The translations under genes were made by a program, and so were the position numbers. A stretch of DNA of 64,000 bases from Dictyostelium discoideum (taxonomy: Eukaryota): positions 5,504,001 to 5,568,000 of the forward strand of contig CM000152.2 of assembly GCA_000004695.1 (NCBI GenBank). The letters run 5' to 3'. This document shows, piece by piece, positions 28,383 to 45,010 of the stretch (its first letter is position 1; each line of letters opens with the position of its first letter). The notes under the pieces are model-generated. The model searched no databases. It was not told the origin of the DNA and worked only from the letters and a program-made list of their open reading frames with translations.

Positions 28383-32679
<4,297 letters not shown>

Positions 32680-32929
32680 TAAAAATAAAAAAATAAAAAA
32701 TAATTAGTTTTGTTTTTTTTTTTTTTTTCTTTTCTTTTACTAAAATTTTTTCATTTTGCAAGTTCATTTTTGACCAAAAAAAAAAAAAAAAAGAGATAAA
32801 GATAAAAACAAAAACAAAAATGGGATTGCAAGAAATTTCATTTTTTTTTCATTTTTTTTTTTTATTTTTTTTTATTTTTTTATATTTTTTTTTATATTTC
32901 ATTTTTTAATTTCTTTCTATTTAAAATAA

Positions 32930-35307
<2,378 letters not shown>

Positions 35308-35487
35308 TAAAATCTTTTTTTTTTTAATTTATTTTTTTAACCTATTTTTTATTTATTTTTTTTTTGGGTTTTTCAAAAAAAGGTCTGAAAACCTAATTAT
35401 TGGAAAAAAAGTGTTTTGATATAGAACAAAATAAGCGAAAATGAATTTAGAAGATCGTTTCAAATTTCATTTGATTTTTATTAAATT

Positions 35488-35527
<40 letters not shown>

Positions 35528-35828
35528 GGACAACACCAGACCAAATCAAATTATTTTTTAAAATGGGAACAAATAAAGAATTTGGTTAATGTCAATTTAC
35601 TGGTAAAAGAAAAAAAAAAAAAAATATCTAACAATCAAGTATGTGATTTTCAAAAAATGTATAATCATTGGATTATAATAAAAATAAAATAAAAATATTT
35701 TTATAAATACTACAAAAAAATTAATTAATTTACAGTTTAGTGGTTTAAAAAAAATAAAAAAAAAAAAAGTTAAAATAAACTTAAAAAACCTATTATTAGA
35801 ACACACAGATCGAAATTACAAATCACCA

Positions 35829-35875
<47 letters not shown>

Positions 35876-36110
35876 GAAAAAAAAAAAATAAAAAATAAAA
35901 AAAAATAAAAAATAAATTTGGGCTCACCCACAAAAGATCAGTATCTGATTGTTTTTTTTTTTTTTATAATATTGATTTTGAAAAATTCAAATTTCTAAAA
36001 ATTGGATAGATACCTTTTGATTAAACAAAATTTTTTAAATTAGAGATGTTTCAAATAAAACCAGTTTTTATGCTCCAAATTATTTTTTTTTTTTTTTTTT
36101 TTTTTTCTTC

Positions 36111-36149
<39 letters not shown>

Positions 36150-36642
36150 AGAAAATATAATACAATAATTTAAAAAAAAAAAATTAAAAAATAAAAAAAT
36201 TTATTTATTAGTTTTTTTAATTTTAATTTACAAATCTATTATCATATTTAAATATTTTTTTATAATCAAAATAAATCAAAATCAAAAAATATTTTAATTC
36301 TTAACCAAATTCAATAAAAAAAAAAACAATTATAATAATTGTCAAAAATCAAATCAAAAAATAAAAAAAAAAAAAAAATAATTAAAAAAAATAAAAAAAA
36401 ATAAATTTTTTATCGTCCATTTATCGTCTTTGGGATTGAAATAAAAACCCTTTGAAAAAAAAAAAAAAAAAAAAAAAAAGCAAAAATAAATTTGTCTGCA
36501 AAGATATACGAAAAAAAAAAAAAATAATAAAAAAAAAATTGGCACACTAAAATTAAAAATAACAGCAAAGATAAAAAAAAAAAAAAAAAAAAAAAAACAG
36601 CAAATATATAATTATATAAAACAATATAATAAAAAAAAAGAT

Positions 36643-38909
36643 ATGGAAATTGATAATTTATTTTTTTACTGTTGGAGAAATGTTTATATTAGAGGTTTAA
36701 TATTTAATTTTATTAAAACCAATAAAACAGAATTAATAAATCCAAATTTTGGTATTTACAATTATTATCAAATGAATGATGTAAATTTAATGGCAACAAA
36801 TAAAGGATTAAAGCAATTGTTAGTTGAAAAGGTTGAAAAAAAATATCATTTAAATTTTAATTTTTCAAAATCTGGAATTCCTTTTGAAAATATTTTTAAA
36901 AATTTTAAAAATGAAACTGATAAAGAATTTTTTAATAATCTATTCAAAAATTATCCAAATTATTTTTTATCTTCAATTGATATAACAGCAGAATATTCAA
37001 TGGCCTGTGATTGTGTTGTTGCATTCCAAGTTTTAGTAAATAATTTTAATTATACTCCAATTAATTGTAAACAATTATTTATTGATTCAATTTTAAAAGG
37101 TTCTATCGAAACTTCAAAATTAATAAATGAAAAGTTTAATCCAAAACTAAACCAAATTGATTATGATGAAATTTGGAAATTATTATTAAATAAGAATGTT
37201 GACCTTGTAATAGAAGAAACTATTCCAAATAATGACCCAATTGGTAAAATTAATAAATCAATTGAATATTTAGTAAAAGAATTAAATGCACCCTTACCAC
37301 CACCTATCGATAATAATTCATTTAAATGTTTTATTGATTTTTCAATTAAAAATAGAAATCTTGAATATATTTTATCAACTTGTTATTCAATTTCCTATTT
37401 AAAATCATCTTTGGAATTATTTATTTCTCCATTTCCAAATTTAACCAATTCATTTAAAATTTTAACAATTAAAGAATTGGATGAAATTAAAATGAAATTA
37501 ACTAGACAAGAATTAGAAAGTAATGTACAAGATATTGAAACTAATAATGAAATAATTTCAAAATTAGTTGGAATGGCTTCAAAATTTACAAGTATTAATT
37601 TTTATTTTAATATGGTATTTTATTATCAACATTATGAAAATAATTATATAACTTTAATGAAATTGAAAATCAAAATCAAAATTTATCATTATTTAATGAA
37701 ATTTTAATTGCACATGGTAATTATAAAGGAATAGTTGAAAATGTTGATTTAATGGAACTTGAACCACATCAAAAAGGTAAATCAATTATAATCACTGGTA
37801 AAGAATCATTTAAAATTTTTAGATCATGTAAAAATAATATTGAAAATGTTTTTAAAATAATGGTACAAGATATTATTGATAATTTCACATTTAGAACTAA
37901 ACCATTAACTGAGATTCATTCAGTTTTAGATATTATTAAATTTTTAGCTACTTTTGGTGATACAAAATTAGTTTTAGAATTATTTGCAGAAATTAATAAA
38001 AACTATGTAATAGTTTCAGGGTACCCAAATCAAGCATATTCTCTAGTAACTTCAACTGAAATGTTTGATATTATATTTTTTAAATTTAAAAATGCATTTA
38101 GATTAAATGAAATTTATGATCTTGTTGATTCAAATAATGATAGAACAAATACTTATTTAATTTTAGATCATTTTAAATCAAAATATCCAAATGAATATAA
38201 TAAAGTAGTAGCACATTATAATCCATTGCCAAATCATTTATTAAATGAATTTATTTTCAATAATTTAGAAGAACATAAACAAAAACTAATTGAAAGTGAA
38301 TGTTGGCTAAATAGAGTAAGAAATGGTGTTGTACCATTAGAACATTTTAAAAAACTTTTAGAAATCACTCCAGATGATCAAGAATATCATTGTTTTGAAA
38401 GTAGTGAAATTTTTAATTATGTTTTCAATCAACGTATGCATGATATTGAAAATGGTAGATTTCAATTAACTCAAAGATCAAATTTATTAAATTATTATGT
38501 TACTGGTAAATTAGAAACAACAATTTTAAATTATATTGAAAAACCAATAAATTTTCCAAATTTAAATAGTTGTATAGATTTATTAATTAAATTTAATGAT
38601 TTAATTTCATTGAAATTCATTTTTGATTATTTTAATTTACCAAATTGTTCAAATTATCAAATATTCTTTAAAAATCATTTAATATTGATATCAGAACAAA
38701 ATAATTTACAAGTTTTATCATTTATTTTTCAAAATTATCCAACATTACTAACTCAAGAAAATTTACAATTCTTATTTAATCATTGTTATCAAAAAACTGC
38801 CTCGATTGAAATAATTAATTATATTATTAAATCAATTAGATTTAAACCAAATTTATTAAATTTATATTCTATTCCGATTGTAAAAAATTATTTTAATTTT
38901 TCAAATTAA
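36643..38909 (+). pseudogene. Dictyostelid orphan-family gene, copy A. Frameshifted around 37645-37707 relative to its intact tandem paralog at 39803..42169.
   Basis: Two ORFs, 36643..37707 and 37752..38909. Together they are collinear with the single 788-aa ORF of copy B. 'MEIDNLFFYCWRNVYIRGLIFNFIKTNKT' matches 'ELFFYCWENVYIKKVIFENLKTNKT'. 'IAHGNYKGIVENVDLMELEPHQKGKSIIITGKESFKIFRSCK' matches 'ISHGDYKDLVLNINKL...INGKSIYFLGFESYTLFRSCK'. The second frame is open from about 37644 and overlaps the end of the first. That pattern is an indel signature, not an intron. Confidence 0.5.
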
Positions 38910-39518
38910 AAAATTATATTAATAAAATTTTAAATATATAAAATAAATAAAAATAATTTTTTTTTTATATATAACATTTATTTTTATGTGTTTGTTATTG
39001 TAATAATAACTATTCAAAGATAATATATTTATATTTGATCGTTTTAAAATATTTTTAATAATAATAACAAACCAATATAAAATAAAAAATTTTTTTGTAA
39101 ATTAAAAAGGTATTAATTAATTATTGTTATTAAACATTAAAAAAATAAAAATTATTTCATTTACTAGATATTGAGAATAAAAATTACAAATTTGTTTGTA
39201 TTTTTTTATTTTTTTTATTTGTGTTAAAATTGTTTTATAAAAAAATAAATAAATAAAGATAAAAATAAAATAAAATTAAATTTTTATCAATAAATTGGAA
39301 AAAAAAATAATAACAACACTAGGTTTTAATATGGGGGTTTTAATTTGTAATTTTGAAATTATTAATTTGTTATTTTATTTTAGATCACACACCACACAAT
39401 TTAAATTCATTTTACATGTTCTCATCATTAAAATTAATTTTTTATTTAATTTAACACTATAAAAAACAATCGTTTTGTGCAATAAAAAAATAATTTGTTT
39501 ATTTATGTTACAATTAAT

Positions 39519-39560
<42 letters not shown>

Positions 39561-39802
39561 CATAATTTAACACTTTATTAAAATTATTATTTTATCTAGG
39601 TGTTAAAATTATTTATATTAAATATAGTTTAATATTTTAATATTTTAATATTTTTTATATTGCCATAAAGAAAAAAAAAATAATAATAATAATAAAAAAA
39701 AAAAAAAAAAAAAAAATAATAATAGTAATAATTTAATTTTTTTAATTTAATTTTTATAATTTATAATTAATAAAATTATAACAAATTAAAAGAAAGAAAG
39801 AA

Positions 39803-42169
39803 ATGGAAATAAATAATGGTACATTAAAAAGGAATTCAGAATTATTTTTTTATTGTTGGGAAAATGTTTACATAAAAAAAGTAATTTTTGAAAATTTAAA
39901 AACAAATAAAACTTCAATAATAAACCTATTATATGGAATATATAATTATTTACAATTAAATGATGTTAATACAATTACAACAAATGAAAACTTACATATT
40001 TTATTAATAGATAAAATTAAAAAAACAAGAAATTTAAATTTTAATTTTCCAAAAACCAAGATTCCCTTTGAATTAATTTTCCAAAAGTTTAATTCAAATG
40101 AAACAATTGATTTTTATAAAGATTTATTTAAAAATTATCCAAAGTATTTCCTTTCTTCAATGGATGCAATTTGTGAATATGCAATCAAATGTAATAATAT
40201 AGTTGCAATTCAAGTTTTAATAAAACATTTTTCATTTGTCCCAAATAATAGTAAAGAAATTCTAATAAGTTCAATTTTAAATGGGTCATTCAAAGTTGCA
40301 AGTTTTTTAAAAGAATCTTTTAATATAAACCTTACCAATGAAGATTATAATAAAATATGGAATTATTTATTATACAATGAAAATGTGGAAGGCACAAAAC
40401 AAGAAGCCCATTCAATGTTTGAAGTAATAAAACATAATAAAAATATAAATTTTAATAAAATAAATGATTCAATTGAATATTTAGTAAAAGAATTAAATGC
40501 ACCATTACCATCACCTATTGGTAATAATTCATTTAAATGTTTCATTGATTTTTCAATTAAAAAAAGAAATCTTGAATTTATTTTATCAACTTGTTATTCA
40601 ATTTCATATTTAAAATCATCTTTGGAATTATTTATTTCACCCAATCCAAATTTAACGAATTCAATTAAAATTTTATCAATTAAAGAATTGGATGAAATTA
40701 AAATGAAATTAACTAGACAAGAATTAGAAAGTAATGTACAAGATATTGAAACTAATAATGAAATAATTTCAAAATTAGTTGGAATGGCTTCAAAATTTAC
40801 AAATATTAATTTTAATGTTAATATGAAGTTTTATTATCAACATTATTATTTTAATGAACCACCTAAACAATGGGGAGATTTTTTAACAAATATTTATAAC
40901 TATATTGAAATTTCAATATCACACGGAGATTATAAAGATTTGGTACTAAATATTAATAAACTACCAATTGATCCTACAATTAATGGTAAATCAATTTATT
41001 TTTTGGGTTTCGAATCATACACATTATTTAGATCATGTAAAAGTATAATGAACCAAAAATGTGAAATATTTATTCAAGATGTTGTTAATCATCAATTAGA
41101 TACAACAATTGCACCAGAATTAAAACATTCAATTATTGATGTTATAAAATTTTTTATTACTTTAGGAAATATTGAATTGATTCAACAACTTTTTATACAA
41201 CTAGATTATTTCAATATTCAAATTAATCCATCAAATTTAATATACTCTTTTATTAATTCAACTGAAATGTTTGATTTAATTTATCAAAGATTTAGAGAAA
41301 CATTCAATTTAAATGAAATTTTAGAAATTGTAAATATGTATAATAAGGTTGAAATTAAATATTTAATACTATACCATTTTAAAAACAACTATACCCAAGA
41401 TTATTATCAACAACTTGAAAATTATATACCATGTGTAAATAATTTATTAAATGAATTTATTTTTGAAAATATTCAAGATTTTCAAAATAAATTAATAGAA
41501 TCAAATTTTTGGTCAAATTCTTATGCAATTAAAACTATAAATACCAATCTCCCATTAAAACATTTTAAAAAATTATTAGAAATAACTCCTATTGATCATG
41601 AATATTATCATTGTTTTAATAATTTTGAAAATTTAAAATATGTAATAGATTTTAGAAAACAAGATATAATCAACAATCGTAGATTTTATATACAATTTGA
41701 AAATTCATCAATTTATAATATATATGCATGTGGAATGATGGAAGAAATTTTTGAGGAATGTTTAGAAAAACCAATTAATATCCCAATGGAAAATTTAAAT
41801 AATACATTTGATTTAATGATTAAATCAATTGATTTAAAATCAATTAAATTTATAATTGATTATTTTAATCTAACAAATAATAATACATTTATTCAAAACT
41901 TTAAGGGATGTTTAAATACAATCTCAAAGTTTAACCGAATTGAAGTTTTATCATTCATATACAATAACTATCCAACACTATTATCTCAAAATAATTTACA
42001 ATCATTATTTGAACATTGTTTACAAGTAACAGGTTCAATTGAAATAATTCAATTTTTAATTAAAGATATTAGATTTAAACCAAACCTTGAAAATATTGAT
42101 AAAAATATTAATTTTACAGATAAAACTTTTATAACTAAAAATTATTTTTTAAAATATTTAAATAAATAA
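39803..42169 (+). CDS. Dictyostelid orphan-family protein, copy B (788 aa, intact), with no recognisable domain
   Basis: Single uninterrupted ORF. It is homologous along its length to copy A at roughly 40-50% amino-acid identity. One segment of about 110 residues is nearly identical even at nucleotide level ('SIEYLVKELNAPLP...KELDEIKMKLTRQELESNVQDIETNNEIISKLVGMASKFT'). Confidence 0.7.
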   Translation: MEINNGTLKRNSELFFYCWENVYIKKVIFENLKTNKTSIINLLYGIYNYLQLNDVNTITTNENLHILLIDKIKKTRNLNFNFPKTKIPFELIFQKFNSNETIDFYKDLFKNYPKYFLSSMDAICEYAIKCNNIVAIQVLIKHFSFVPNNSKEILISSILNGSFKVASFLKESFNINLTNEDYNKIWNYLLYNENVEGTKQEAHSMFEVIKHNKNINFNKINDSIEYLVKELNAPLPSPIGNNSFKCFIDFSIKKRNLEFILSTCYSISYLKSSLELFISPNPNLTNSIKILSIKELDEIKMKLTRQELESNVQDIETNNEIISKLVGMASKFTNINFNVNMKFYYQHYYFNEPPKQWGDFLTNIYNYIEISISHGDYKDLVLNINKLPIDPTINGKSIYFLGFESYTLFRSCKSIMNQKCEIFIQDVVNHQLDTTIAPELKHSIIDVIKFFITLGNIELIQQLFIQLDYFNIQINPSNLIYSFINSTEMFDLIYQRFRETFNLNEILEIVNMYNKVEIKYLILYHFKNNYTQDYYQQLENYIPCVNNLLNEFIFENIQDFQNKLIESNFWSNSYAIKTINTNLPLKHFKKLLEITPIDHEYYHCFNNFENLKYVIDFRKQDIINNRRFYIQFENSSIYNIYACGMMEEIFEECLEKPINIPMENLNNTFDLMIKSIDLKSIKFIIDYFNLTNNNTFIQNFKGCLNTISKFNRIEVLSFIYNNYPTLLSQNNLQSLFEHCLQVTGSIEIIQFLIKDIRFKPNLENIDKNINFTDKTFITKNYFLKYLNK

Positions 42170-42264
42170 TAATTTTATTTATATTTCTCTATGGTTGTAC
42201 AACAAATTATTTATTTTTTATTTATTTATTATTTATTATTTGTTTTATTTATTATTTAATTTAT

Positions 42265-44140
42265 TTATTTCTTCTTTTTTACAGCTTCTAATTTTAAGAG
42301 AGTTTTACCAATTTTAATAGTATCACCAGGTAAGAGATAAGCTTTACTAATTCTTTTATGATTAACTTTAGTACCATGACCAGAACCTAAATCAATGATA
42401 ATTACAGAATTTTCAGAAACTTCAATTTTACAATGGCTTCTTGATACTTTTTTATCACCAACAGTGACAATACAACTTTCAGAACGACCAATTGTATTAT
42501 TACCTAAATTTAATTTGACAACAGCTGGTTTTTCAGTTGGTGGTAAATCGAAGGGTGTGATAATTAAAGTTGCAGTGAACTTTTTACCATAACCATTGAT
42601 TGGTTGTTGATGAACACCTTCTTCTGACACTCTTGGTTGTTGATTTAATTTTAATTTATCCATTGGTGGCATATCAATTAATTTCTTACCTTCTTTTGCA
42701 TTATTTAATGCTAATACCCAATCTTTCATTGCAACATGATGTTTAGCTTTCAATATAAATACACTTAATGGTGTTGATAATTTAAAGCAATGTCTAAGAT
42801 CTGGTGAATCACAAACTGAAATATCTGTATATTTTAATGTAATAACACCTTGTGGTGGCTAAAAAAAAAAAAAATTAGTAATCTAAAGATTTAATAAAAA
42901 CATATATATATATGTATATATATATAATGTAATAGTTTACCATTTTTGAACTTTTATAATAATATAAACATCTTTCAACTAAAACGAAATAATAACCTTT
43001 CCAAGTTATTTGATCATCACTATCTTCCATTATTAATAGATTACCAGATTTATCTTTTTTAGATTTATTCAAAATATTTGAAGAGTAAGTATCAATCTCT
43101 TGAAGTAAAATTAAAAGACGATCCAATTCAACTTGAGTTTTTTGTTCAAACAATGGTGAAACTACAGTGTAAGCTTCGAGACGTTCATCATAATCGGTTT
43201 GAGTTAGATTAGTTCTAACTAGATTTTGTAAAACTGAATTCCATTGTTCAAATTCTTCATTTGTAGAGGCACAAAGTGAATCGATTCTTTTATTCTTTGA
43301 AAAGATTTGTAATTGATAATTACCAACGTTTGGAGTTTTCATATCGATAAGATTCTTTTCTTTCAATGGGATTGGTGGTGTGATGAATGAGATTGTGATT
43401 GTACCTTTTGGTTTTCTTGCTTTTTTGGTTTTAAAATAATGTAAATGATTACCAATCAATACGAAATAATATTTCTTCCAACCTGCGGCGAATCTACTCT
43501 TTTTCAATAACTCACCCTCCATAGTTGCATGATTATGTTCTGCTTCCAATACCCAACCACGATCGATAACTGATAAATGTGATGATATCTTTTTGTCAAG
43601 CGAACTTTGTTGTTCTGTTAATAATTTAATATCAGTTTTATTATCCTTTTTACCACCACTGCCACCACGTACACCATCAACTTCATTACCACTGTTGTCT
43701 TCATTTGATGAGGTTATTGGTCTAATCTCTTTTGGTTTCTTTGAAGATGATGATGCTTTTTTAATTGCTTTATGATCATCATCTGCTTCATCCTCTGATG
43801 ATGAATAAATATCATAACTATAATAATTTGAATTAATTCTTTGATTAAATTCATCCTCTGTAATTGGTACTGGTCCTCTAATACTACCTGAACTTTCATT
43901 CTTTCTATGAATTACATCAAATTCATCCTCATCATGATTTTTATGATTACTTGGGCTACTTGATGTTGTTGTAGTTGTTGTTTGTTTTTTACTAATACTA
44001 CCACTTGTAGATGATGATGATTCTTTCTTTTTACTACTACTGTTACTACTAGATGATGATTTCTTTTCTTTCTTTGATGATCTTGTTAATGGTTCTTCAA
44101 TAAATTCATCCTCTTCTAAGTCTACTAATTTACCAAACAT
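42265..44140 (-). CDS. PH-PH-FHA domain protein with a Ser-rich N-terminus, 2 exons: complement(join(42265..42858,42941..44140))
   Basis: Exon 1 (400 codons) carries two PH-like segments: 'GWVLEAEHNHATMEGELLKKSRFAAGWKKYYFVLIGNHLHYFKTKK...PKGTITI' and 'ITWKGYYFVLVERCLYYYKSSKM'. It ends at a GTAAAC donor (phase 0). The acceptor is a t-rich run ending in ag at 42859. Exon 2 completes the second PH ('PPQGVITLKYTDISVCDSPDLRHCFKLS...VAMKDWVLALNNA'). It then encodes an FHA domain ('NTIGRSESCIVTVGDKKVSRSHCKIEV...IIIDLGSGHGTKVN...LLPGDTIKIG'). Confidence 0.7.
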
Positions 44141-44613
44141 TTCTTTTTTTTTTTATTTATAATATAATATTGTTTTTTTTTCTTTTATTTTATTTGTATG
44201 TATTTTAAAAAAAAAAAAAATTAAAATTTTTTAATATGGGCTATTCGATGAGCAAAGGCGTGTGTGAATTGCGGTTGAGGGGGTTTAATATATATATATT
44301 TTTTATTTTTTTTTCAAATATATAAACTATTAAAAATTATAAAAAAAAAAAAAAAAAATTTTTGAGGAAGGTGATCAAGATTGAACTAAATTTAAATTTA
44401 TTAATCTGTATTCAAATAATAGTGGGTGAAAGAAATTGGGTATAAAAAAAAAAAAAATGTTTAAAAAAAAAAAAAAAAAAAAAAGATTTTTTTTTTTTTT
44501 TGTTTAAATACAATAGCGGTTTGTGTGAAAAAGAAAAATAAAAAAAAAAAAAAAATGGCTAATAGAATTTTTATGGATTCGATGAATTTGTAGATTTTTA
44601 TATTTATTTATTT

Positions 44614-44651
<38 letters not shown>

Positions 44652-45010
44652 ATATAGTTTATTTTAATATATTTTGCTATAAGACACAAAAAAAAAAAAA
44701 AAAAAAAAATAAAAATAATTATAAAATAAAATAAAACGTGGTATATTCACATGAAAATTTGTACACTATCAATCACGAAAAAAAAAAAAAAAAAAAAAAA
44801 AGAATTAATTTTCTTTCATTCTTTGAATCTAAAAAATTCAACAAATAATGGGATCTCGATATTTTCAATCTTTTTTTTTTTTTTTTTTTTTTTTCTTTCA
44901 CAAAATTACAAAAATTTGTCAAAAACTCGCATCTATTTTTATAACCAATTTTTTATTTTTTGTTTTTTTTTTTTATTTATTATTATTGTTATTTTATAAT
45001 TTATTTAAAG

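Follow-up and report, generated by a model that had tools for sequence, protein, structure and literature searches.

Does the tandem gene pair considered here contain one intact and one decaying member, or does the apparent damage belong to the reference sequence in which it was read? The question was raised by two neighbouring genes of Dictyostelium discoideum, henceforth referred to as copy A (DDB_G0282225) and copy B (DDB_G0282227), within a 64,000-nucleotide (nt) stretch of the AX4 genome with a GC content of about 20% (the window). A preliminary description of the window had presented copy A as a frameshifted duplicate of copy B. Taken as a whole, the results are very probably best explained by an old and conserved pair that has undergone recurrent gene conversion, by a frameshift confined to the reference, and by a false intron in the public gene model.

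A and B arose by an old tandem duplication and lie on D. discoideum chromosome 3; the positions of their features are collected in Table 1. As first proposed, the genes are direct, collinear paralogues, which was confirmed over their full length, from start to stop, by tblastn and MAFFT, with identities of 70% (nucleotide) and about 52% (protein). Copy B is indeed one clean open reading frame (ORF) and its product matches DDB_G0282227 exactly. The size of about 790 codons initially given for each gene applies to copy B (788 codons) and not to copy A, which encodes 755 amino acids (aa) when repaired, and the separation of 900 bp was roughly right, the exact spacer being 893 bp. The N-terminal motif LFFYCW.NVYI, described earlier as conserved, is present in all of the A and B copies examined (16/16). 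No further members of the family besides A and B were found inside the window.

Table 1 Features of the A/B locus. Positions are those of the window unless a locus is named; L001 to L008 are the corresponding loci in other genomes.
Feature	Position	Strand	Description
Copy A	36643-38909	+	DDB_G0282225; 755-aa protein once the single T is restored
Copy A ORF1	36643-37707	+	354 aa
Copy A ORF2	37752-38909	+	385 aa; ATG at 37752; frame open from 37668
Conversion tract, A side	37245-37635	+	About 130 codons, KINKSIEYLVKELNAPLP to MVFYYQHY
Perfect match	A 37466-37591 = B 40677-40802	+	126 nt
Modelled intron	37592-37734	+	143 nt, from P0011 junction KFT/IENVDL; removes 48 codons
Frameshift site	37650-37651	+	T of (TA)n run absent; from comparison with L001
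A-B spacer	38910-39802	no strand	893 bp, AT-rich
Copy B	39803-42169	+	DDB_G0282227; uninterrupted 788-codon ORF
Conversion tract, B side	40456-40846	+	Gapless to A 37245-37635, 24 mismatches in 391 nt
Copy B model start probably too late	L002 9133-9303, L003 9179-9349, L004 9306-9476		Open ORF upstream of model

The frame change reported for copy A is present in the window sequence, where two ORFs lie in different frames and both frames end at stops. The overlap of about 60 nt originally attributed to these ORFs was not recovered, as both frames are open over 40 nt (37668-37707). The indel, for the location of which an alignment of the two copies had been suggested, was identified by comparison with a near-identical assembly as a single T absent between 37650 and 37651. 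An uninterrupted 755-aa copy A (P0014) is encoded at locus L001 in the D. discoideum assembly GCA_054883475.1. At the frameshift site, marked here by a slash, the window reads TATATA/ACTTT and L001 reads TATATATACTTT, the window having one T fewer. Insertion of a T after window position 37650 yields the L001 copy A coding sequence base for base. The copy B coding sequences of the window and L001 are identical, and across the A and B coding sequences together the extra T after 37650 is the sole difference between them. The reading frame at the lesion site is kept in 8/8 other A copies (L001-L008), and copy A is intact in L001 and in seven further genomes, from at least four species. The lesion lies 15 nt past the 3' end of the segment in which A and B are nearly identical.

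The conservation of the pair was established by comparison with these genomes. Protein searches recovered distinct A-type and B-type orthologue groups, whose members all belong to D. discoideum, "D. cf. discoideum", D. citrinum, D. dimigraforme or D. firmibasis. In 8/8 other loci (L001-L008) a large gene is followed by a KBP_C-domain gene, then by A and B, and finally by an opposite-strand PH/FHA-domain gene. A and B are each a single open ORF in all eight, and are separated by a spacer of 849-1134 bp. The between-species ratio of nonsynonymous to synonymous substitution rates (dN/dS) spans 0.24-0.30 in A and 0.23-0.38 in B, and because these values are low, both genes can be said to be kept by selection. 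A and B are thus intron-less genes under purifying selection, retained in the same neighbourhood. The duplication took place before D. discoideum, D. citrinum, D. dimigraforme and D. firmibasis separated; since the divergence of D. discoideum and D. firmibasis has been estimated at 50-100 million years (Holland et al., PMC12745789), the duplication is at least 50-100 million years old. As a separate observation, in the N-terminal third of the genes (A 36643-37245, B 39803-40455) dN was about twice as high in B (0.23-0.37) as in A (0.11-0.19), with a dN/dS of 0.27-0.45 and 0.22-0.30, respectively.

With copy A intact in eight other genomes, under purifying selection, and bearing the lesion in the AX4 reference only, its original classification as a disrupted duplicate was largely abandoned. 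On the evidence of these alignments, the frame change of copy A is private to the AX4 reference and not an evolved pseudogene lesion. A decaying duplicate or unitary pseudogene was rejected because there are no shared or further lesions and the rest of A is identical to the intact copy. Relaxed constraint on copy A was rejected because the orthologue dN/dS is not near 1, and programmed ribosomal frameshifting was rejected because every orthologue is read in a single frame.

A second feature of the pair, absent from the earlier reading of the window, is a central tract of about 390 bp that, as judged from identities and trees, is homogenised by recurrent interlocus gene conversion. The A/B identity outside the tract in the window is about 60-70%. 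In every genome examined, A and B of the same genome show an identity of about 0.8-0.99 inside the tract, compared with 0.45-0.78 beyond its borders. Orthologues are 0.81-0.89 identical over the tract, and A and B of D. firmibasis up to 0.99. In neighbour-joining trees, the flanks support the split between A and B with bootstrap values of 0.97-0.995, and the tract gives it a value of 0; in the tract tree A and B of D. firmibasis are sisters, as are A and B of D. dimigraforme, each with about 100% support. Synonymous divergence (dS) in the tract is 0.26 between the D. firmibasis paralogues, below the 0.54-0.68 observed between D. discoideum and D. firmibasis orthologues; because the paralogue dS is lower than the orthologue dS, conversion is required in D. 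firmibasis. Private derived bases common to both paralogues are also concentrated in the tract, both in D. firmibasis (25/387 sites in the tract vs 19/1842 in the flanks, p = 3e-9) and in D. dimigraforme (12/387 vs 3/1842, p = 2e-7). The maximal-scoring identical segment has its 3' end at 37635 in 7/8 genomes.

The perfect match of 126 nt within the tract is not a chance occurrence, because A and B otherwise differ at about 30% of sites, and it is taken, from the aligned bases, to be the footprint of a very recent conversion. Within this match, A and B share a derived base at 37505, in a Lys-to-Arg codon, that is private to the NC4 (AX2/AX4) lineage, which means that conversion is still under way. 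Under the simplest mechanism, the best-conserved protein segment would stay similar enough for homologous repair, for which the diverged flanks would no longer qualify. The central segment of one copy could then repeatedly overwrite that of the other in a self-reinforcing manner. An embedded RNA gene was rejected as the cause of the conserved tract because scans for Rfam families and tRNAs over 35.0-43.0 kb returned nothing. Comparison by blastn of the regions upstream of A and B was swamped by poly-A/T low complexity.

The origin of the missing T was addressed by comparing the window with L001 over 30613-44926, where the two are 99.6% identical. The differences consist of eight homopolymer length changes, eleven substitutions and the additional T of L001. 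Of these substitutions, ten, mostly transversions, cluster at 35528-36346, in 820 bp of intergenic sequence upstream of copy A. At all ten of these sites the window base is unique and the L001 base is the majority among L002-L005; the L001 base is common to all four at 7/10 sites, and at the remaining 3/10 one genome is gapped or has the window's base. Mutagenesis of the nitrosoguanidine (NTG) type was rejected as a source of the cluster because only 2/10 changes are G-to-A. AX2 and AX3/AX4 are independent descendants of NC4. The assembly project to which L001 belongs (PRJNA1300491, ten assemblies) holds nine wild isolates diverged from AX4 and the laboratory strain AX2-214 (Holland et al., PMC12745789), and because of this composition we infer by elimination that L001 is AX2-214. 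Ten private changes in 820 bp cannot reflect true divergence of two NC4 derivatives, and for this reason the AX4 reference looks locally unreliable; from the comparison, 35528-36346 looks like a low-quality patch. The missing T is probably a Sanger-era sequence or assembly error, a cause that is favoured because the ten reference-only substitutions sit 1.3-2.1 kb upstream of it. As a matter of speculation, reads from copy B might disturb the shotgun consensus at the point where the near-identity of A and B stops.

The homopolymer differences between the window and L001, at window positions 32776, 35491, 35831, 36113, 36573, 39521, 44616 and 44778, are all in one direction, the window being longer by 1-10 A or T. 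This pattern is consistent with collapse in the nanopore assembly or with over-calling in the Sanger reference.

A sequence error is not the sole explanation for the missing T, and the strongest competitor, itself unlikely, is a real loss-of-function mutation that arose recently in the laboratory lineage AX3/AX4, in which case copy A would be a nascent pseudogene confined to this strain. In the window the T is indeed missing, and stops close both frames. The lesion also lies inside a short, slippage-prone TA repeat and borders on a tract that was converted recently; repair synthesis can introduce mutations. Furthermore, the predicted structure places the lesion where a poorly conserved, low-confidence linker begins, and a split of the protein might be tolerated there. 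Opposed to this, the rest of A is identical to the AX2-like intact copy without secondary decay, the reference-only substitutions within 2.1 kb upstream indicate that local errors exist, and, across the genome, consensus errors of the Sanger era are expected to be more numerous than true differences between AX2 and AX4. The two explanations differ in what they predict at the frameshift site: a reference error predicts TATATATAC in AX4, and a laboratory-lineage mutation predicts TATATAAC (window 37645-37652) in AX4/AX3, with AX2 and NC4 lacking it. Exact look-ups of the 354-aa and 385-aa truncated products returned no independent record and were uninformative.

Rather improbable is a further alternative, in which the module encoded by the fixed-border tract is kept identical by selection and not only through the homology that recombination needs, or in which a genuine AX4 lesion divides the gene at the inter-domain linker. 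If selection for identity were true, A and B may, for example, need the same module of approximately 130 residues for a common partner or for mutual pairing, and recurrent conversion would be a co-evolution device kept for tens of millions of years.

A genuine spliceosomal intron, which would yield a 707-aa protein and leave no frameshift to explain, is very improbable. The AX4 protein P0011 (DDB_G0282225, 707 aa) corresponds to copy A without 48 codons, and the preliminary description had stated that a short intron restoring the frame would refute a disrupted copy A. Such an intron is annotated, but the interval codes for protein in the orthologues and its GT and AG are unconserved. The donor GT is present in 1/16 copies, namely the NC4-lineage copy A; the remaining 15 carry AAATATT or a similar sequence without GT in its place. 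The acceptor AG is present in 3/8 A copies, all of them from D. discoideum. The interior is in-frame coding sequence in every B copy and in the eight further A copies, and encodes the invariant residues N336, F337, N340, M341, F343-Y345, H347, Y348, E369, H374, Y377 and K378. Ten GT-AG pairs could equally restore the frame of copy A, of which the modelled pair is one, and no introns are present in the A or B gene models of the other genomes (L001-L008). The presence of GT and AG termini, an interior GC of 15%, the use of the intron by the public model and a length near the mean for Dictyostelium introns all favour splicing; the lack of conservation of the termini, the invariant coding residues, the surplus of equivalent GT-AG pairs and a donor (GTATTA) that departs from the GTAAGT consensus outweigh them. 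From these alignments, the 143-nt intron is judged to be an annotation artefact bridging the frameshift. In spurious-intron gene models, a known type of artefact, an intron of typical length likewise removes conserved coding sequence to accommodate a 1-nt discrepancy; DDB_G0282225 does not differ from them in kind and is an instance.

Least credible of all is that the tract owes its identity to extreme purifying selection or to an embedded non-coding element and not to conversion: no protein segment is better conserved between species than that of the tract, but paralogues within a genome are closer to each other than orthologues are, synonymous sites included, they have lineage-private derived bases in common, the topology switches from paralogue grouping to species grouping, and no Rfam family or tRNA is present.

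Several observations nonetheless weigh against the explanation preferred here, namely an old converted pair with a reference-only frameshift. Neither GC nor GC at third codon positions (GC3) is raised in the tract relative to the flanks, so that a by-product of biased conversion is absent; GC enrichment of this origin is frequent but not obligatory. The strain identity of L001 was obtained by elimination and not from its record. A distance of 1.3 kb separates the frameshift from the closest reference-only substitution, which makes the argument from the low-quality patch an indirect one, and the choice between an error and a laboratory mutation is drawn from the comparison of assemblies rather than from AX4 reads or transcripts. 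At the protein level, the AlphaFold2 (AF2) model is mediocre, with a predicted local distance difference test score (pLDDT) of 65.6 and a predicted template modelling score (pTM) of 0.43, a Foldseek search against PDB gave no match with E <1e-3, and the ankyrin assignment is weak, lying below every Pfam cutoff.

The preliminary description had been unable to place the family and had seen no known domain in it. This holds insofar as no Pfam family reached its cutoff for A, B or their relatives; the family can nevertheless be recognised as a lineage-specific expansion with a sub-threshold ankyrin resemblance. Ank_2 (PF12796) scored 21 bits with copy B and 21.9 bits with the relative P0030, against a cutoff of 27.3, and gave no match with copy A and seven relatives. 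The profile search that had been proposed for finding family members in other dictyostelids was carried out exhaustively against 1.84 billion representatives and matched 17 proteins, with relatives in Dictyostelium only. These 17 comprise 14 proteins from the group-4 species listed above for the A-type and B-type groups, one weak match in D. purpureum, one ENA sequence and one mussel ankyrin protein. The relatives in AX4 include DDB_G0270810 and DDB_G0289685, the latter labelled "Ankyrin repeat-containing protein" in UniRef. The canonical ankyrin repeats of the mussel protein aligned with the family profile at profile positions 92-176 and 667-741.

In the structural model, residues 349-416 of copy B form a poorly conserved linker with a pLDDT <50. 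Superposition on solved ANK domains was good only over blocks of about 120 residues of the mediocre AF2 model, and a profile search of PDB sequences gave nothing significant. The generic alpha-solenoids (PPR, HEAT) returned by Foldseek were not taken as homology, having E >5e-3 and a template modelling (TM) score of about 0.15, and an F-box reading of the N-terminal motif was rejected because Pfam gave no support at E up to 1. Together, the profile scores and the model suggest a Dictyostelium-only family of predicted all-helical proteins of approximately 755-790 aa with a weak resemblance to ankyrin repeats, which may be present in degenerate form. We infer that these proteins are most likely non-enzymatic, protein-binding scaffolds. 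In comparison with ankyrin-repeat proteins (Ank_2; yeast Yar1, DARPins, AnkB), the A/B family differs in its sub-cutoff scores, its own N-terminal motif, its central module and its long low-confidence linker. A full-text literature search on both gene identifiers found no paper.

Interlocus conversion between tandem paralogues is known from human gamma-globin HBG1/HBG2 and from RHD/RHCE. The A/B pair displays the same short homogenised tract, diverged flanks, incongruent trees and common lineage-specific substitutions as these systems. It differs from them in that the 3' border of the tract is constant, and its extent almost so, in 7/8 genomes, and in that the tract has no GC enrichment. Interlocus conversion has also been surveyed in Caenorhabditis paralogues (PMC3966223). 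A literature search on gene conversion in Dictyostelium returned nothing specific.

Within Dictyostelium, the tgr family undergoes birth-and-death evolution with local recombination, and some tgr 'pseudogenes' were defined from the AX4 reference, their status in other strains having been questioned (PMC12745789; bioRxiv 10.1101/2025.10.22.684067). Features common to tgr and A/B are a multigene family in group-4 Dictyostelium, genes in tandem pairs, paralogues that recombine, and 'pseudogenes' called on the AX4 sequence. Unlike tgr, the A/B locus is static, with the same order, orientation and copy number in 9/9 genomes. The A/B genes are also under purifying and not diversifying selection, and their proteins are unrelated to Tgr.

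Other features of the locus were recorded along with the pair. The KBP_C-domain gene is its upstream neighbour, and the gene with PH and FHA domains (window 42265-44140, minus strand), which has introns and encodes approximately 600 aa, occupies the same position in nine genomes. Three deposited copy B models in wild genomes (L002-L004; 729-733 aa) begin at an internal Met, and the ORF is open for 57-58 codons upstream and encodes LFFYCWENVYI. By this sequence criterion, the 729-733-aa models are probably too short, and N-terminal truncation of B as a form of decay in the three genomes was rejected because the upstream ORF encodes the motif. L002 and L003, both labelled D. discoideum, are about 91-93% identical to AX4 over the 14-kb locus, with an A/B dS of about 0.10. 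The usual diversity in D. discoideum is about 0.003, far below this divergence (bioRxiv 10.1101/2025.10.22.684067), and the divergence of L002 and L003 agrees with that of tropical isolates described as genetically diverged.

For the annotation of D. discoideum, these results mean that DDB_G0282225 in the AX4 reference is very probably affected by an error of one base, or by a lesion private to the strain, and that a false intron in the gene model masks it. The public 707-aa protein lacks 48 conserved residues and should be replaced by the 755-aa form. More generally, a "tandem duplicate with one disrupted copy" identified in a single reference can be a reference artefact. The findings on A and B do not overturn current understanding: the new content is the tract-limited, recurrent conversion in an old tandem pair, and the type of phenomenon is already known. 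The pair defines a Dictyostelium-specific, ankyrin-like family, and offers a tractable case of tract-limited conversion with a conserved border, in an AT-rich genome and with no signature of GC bias.

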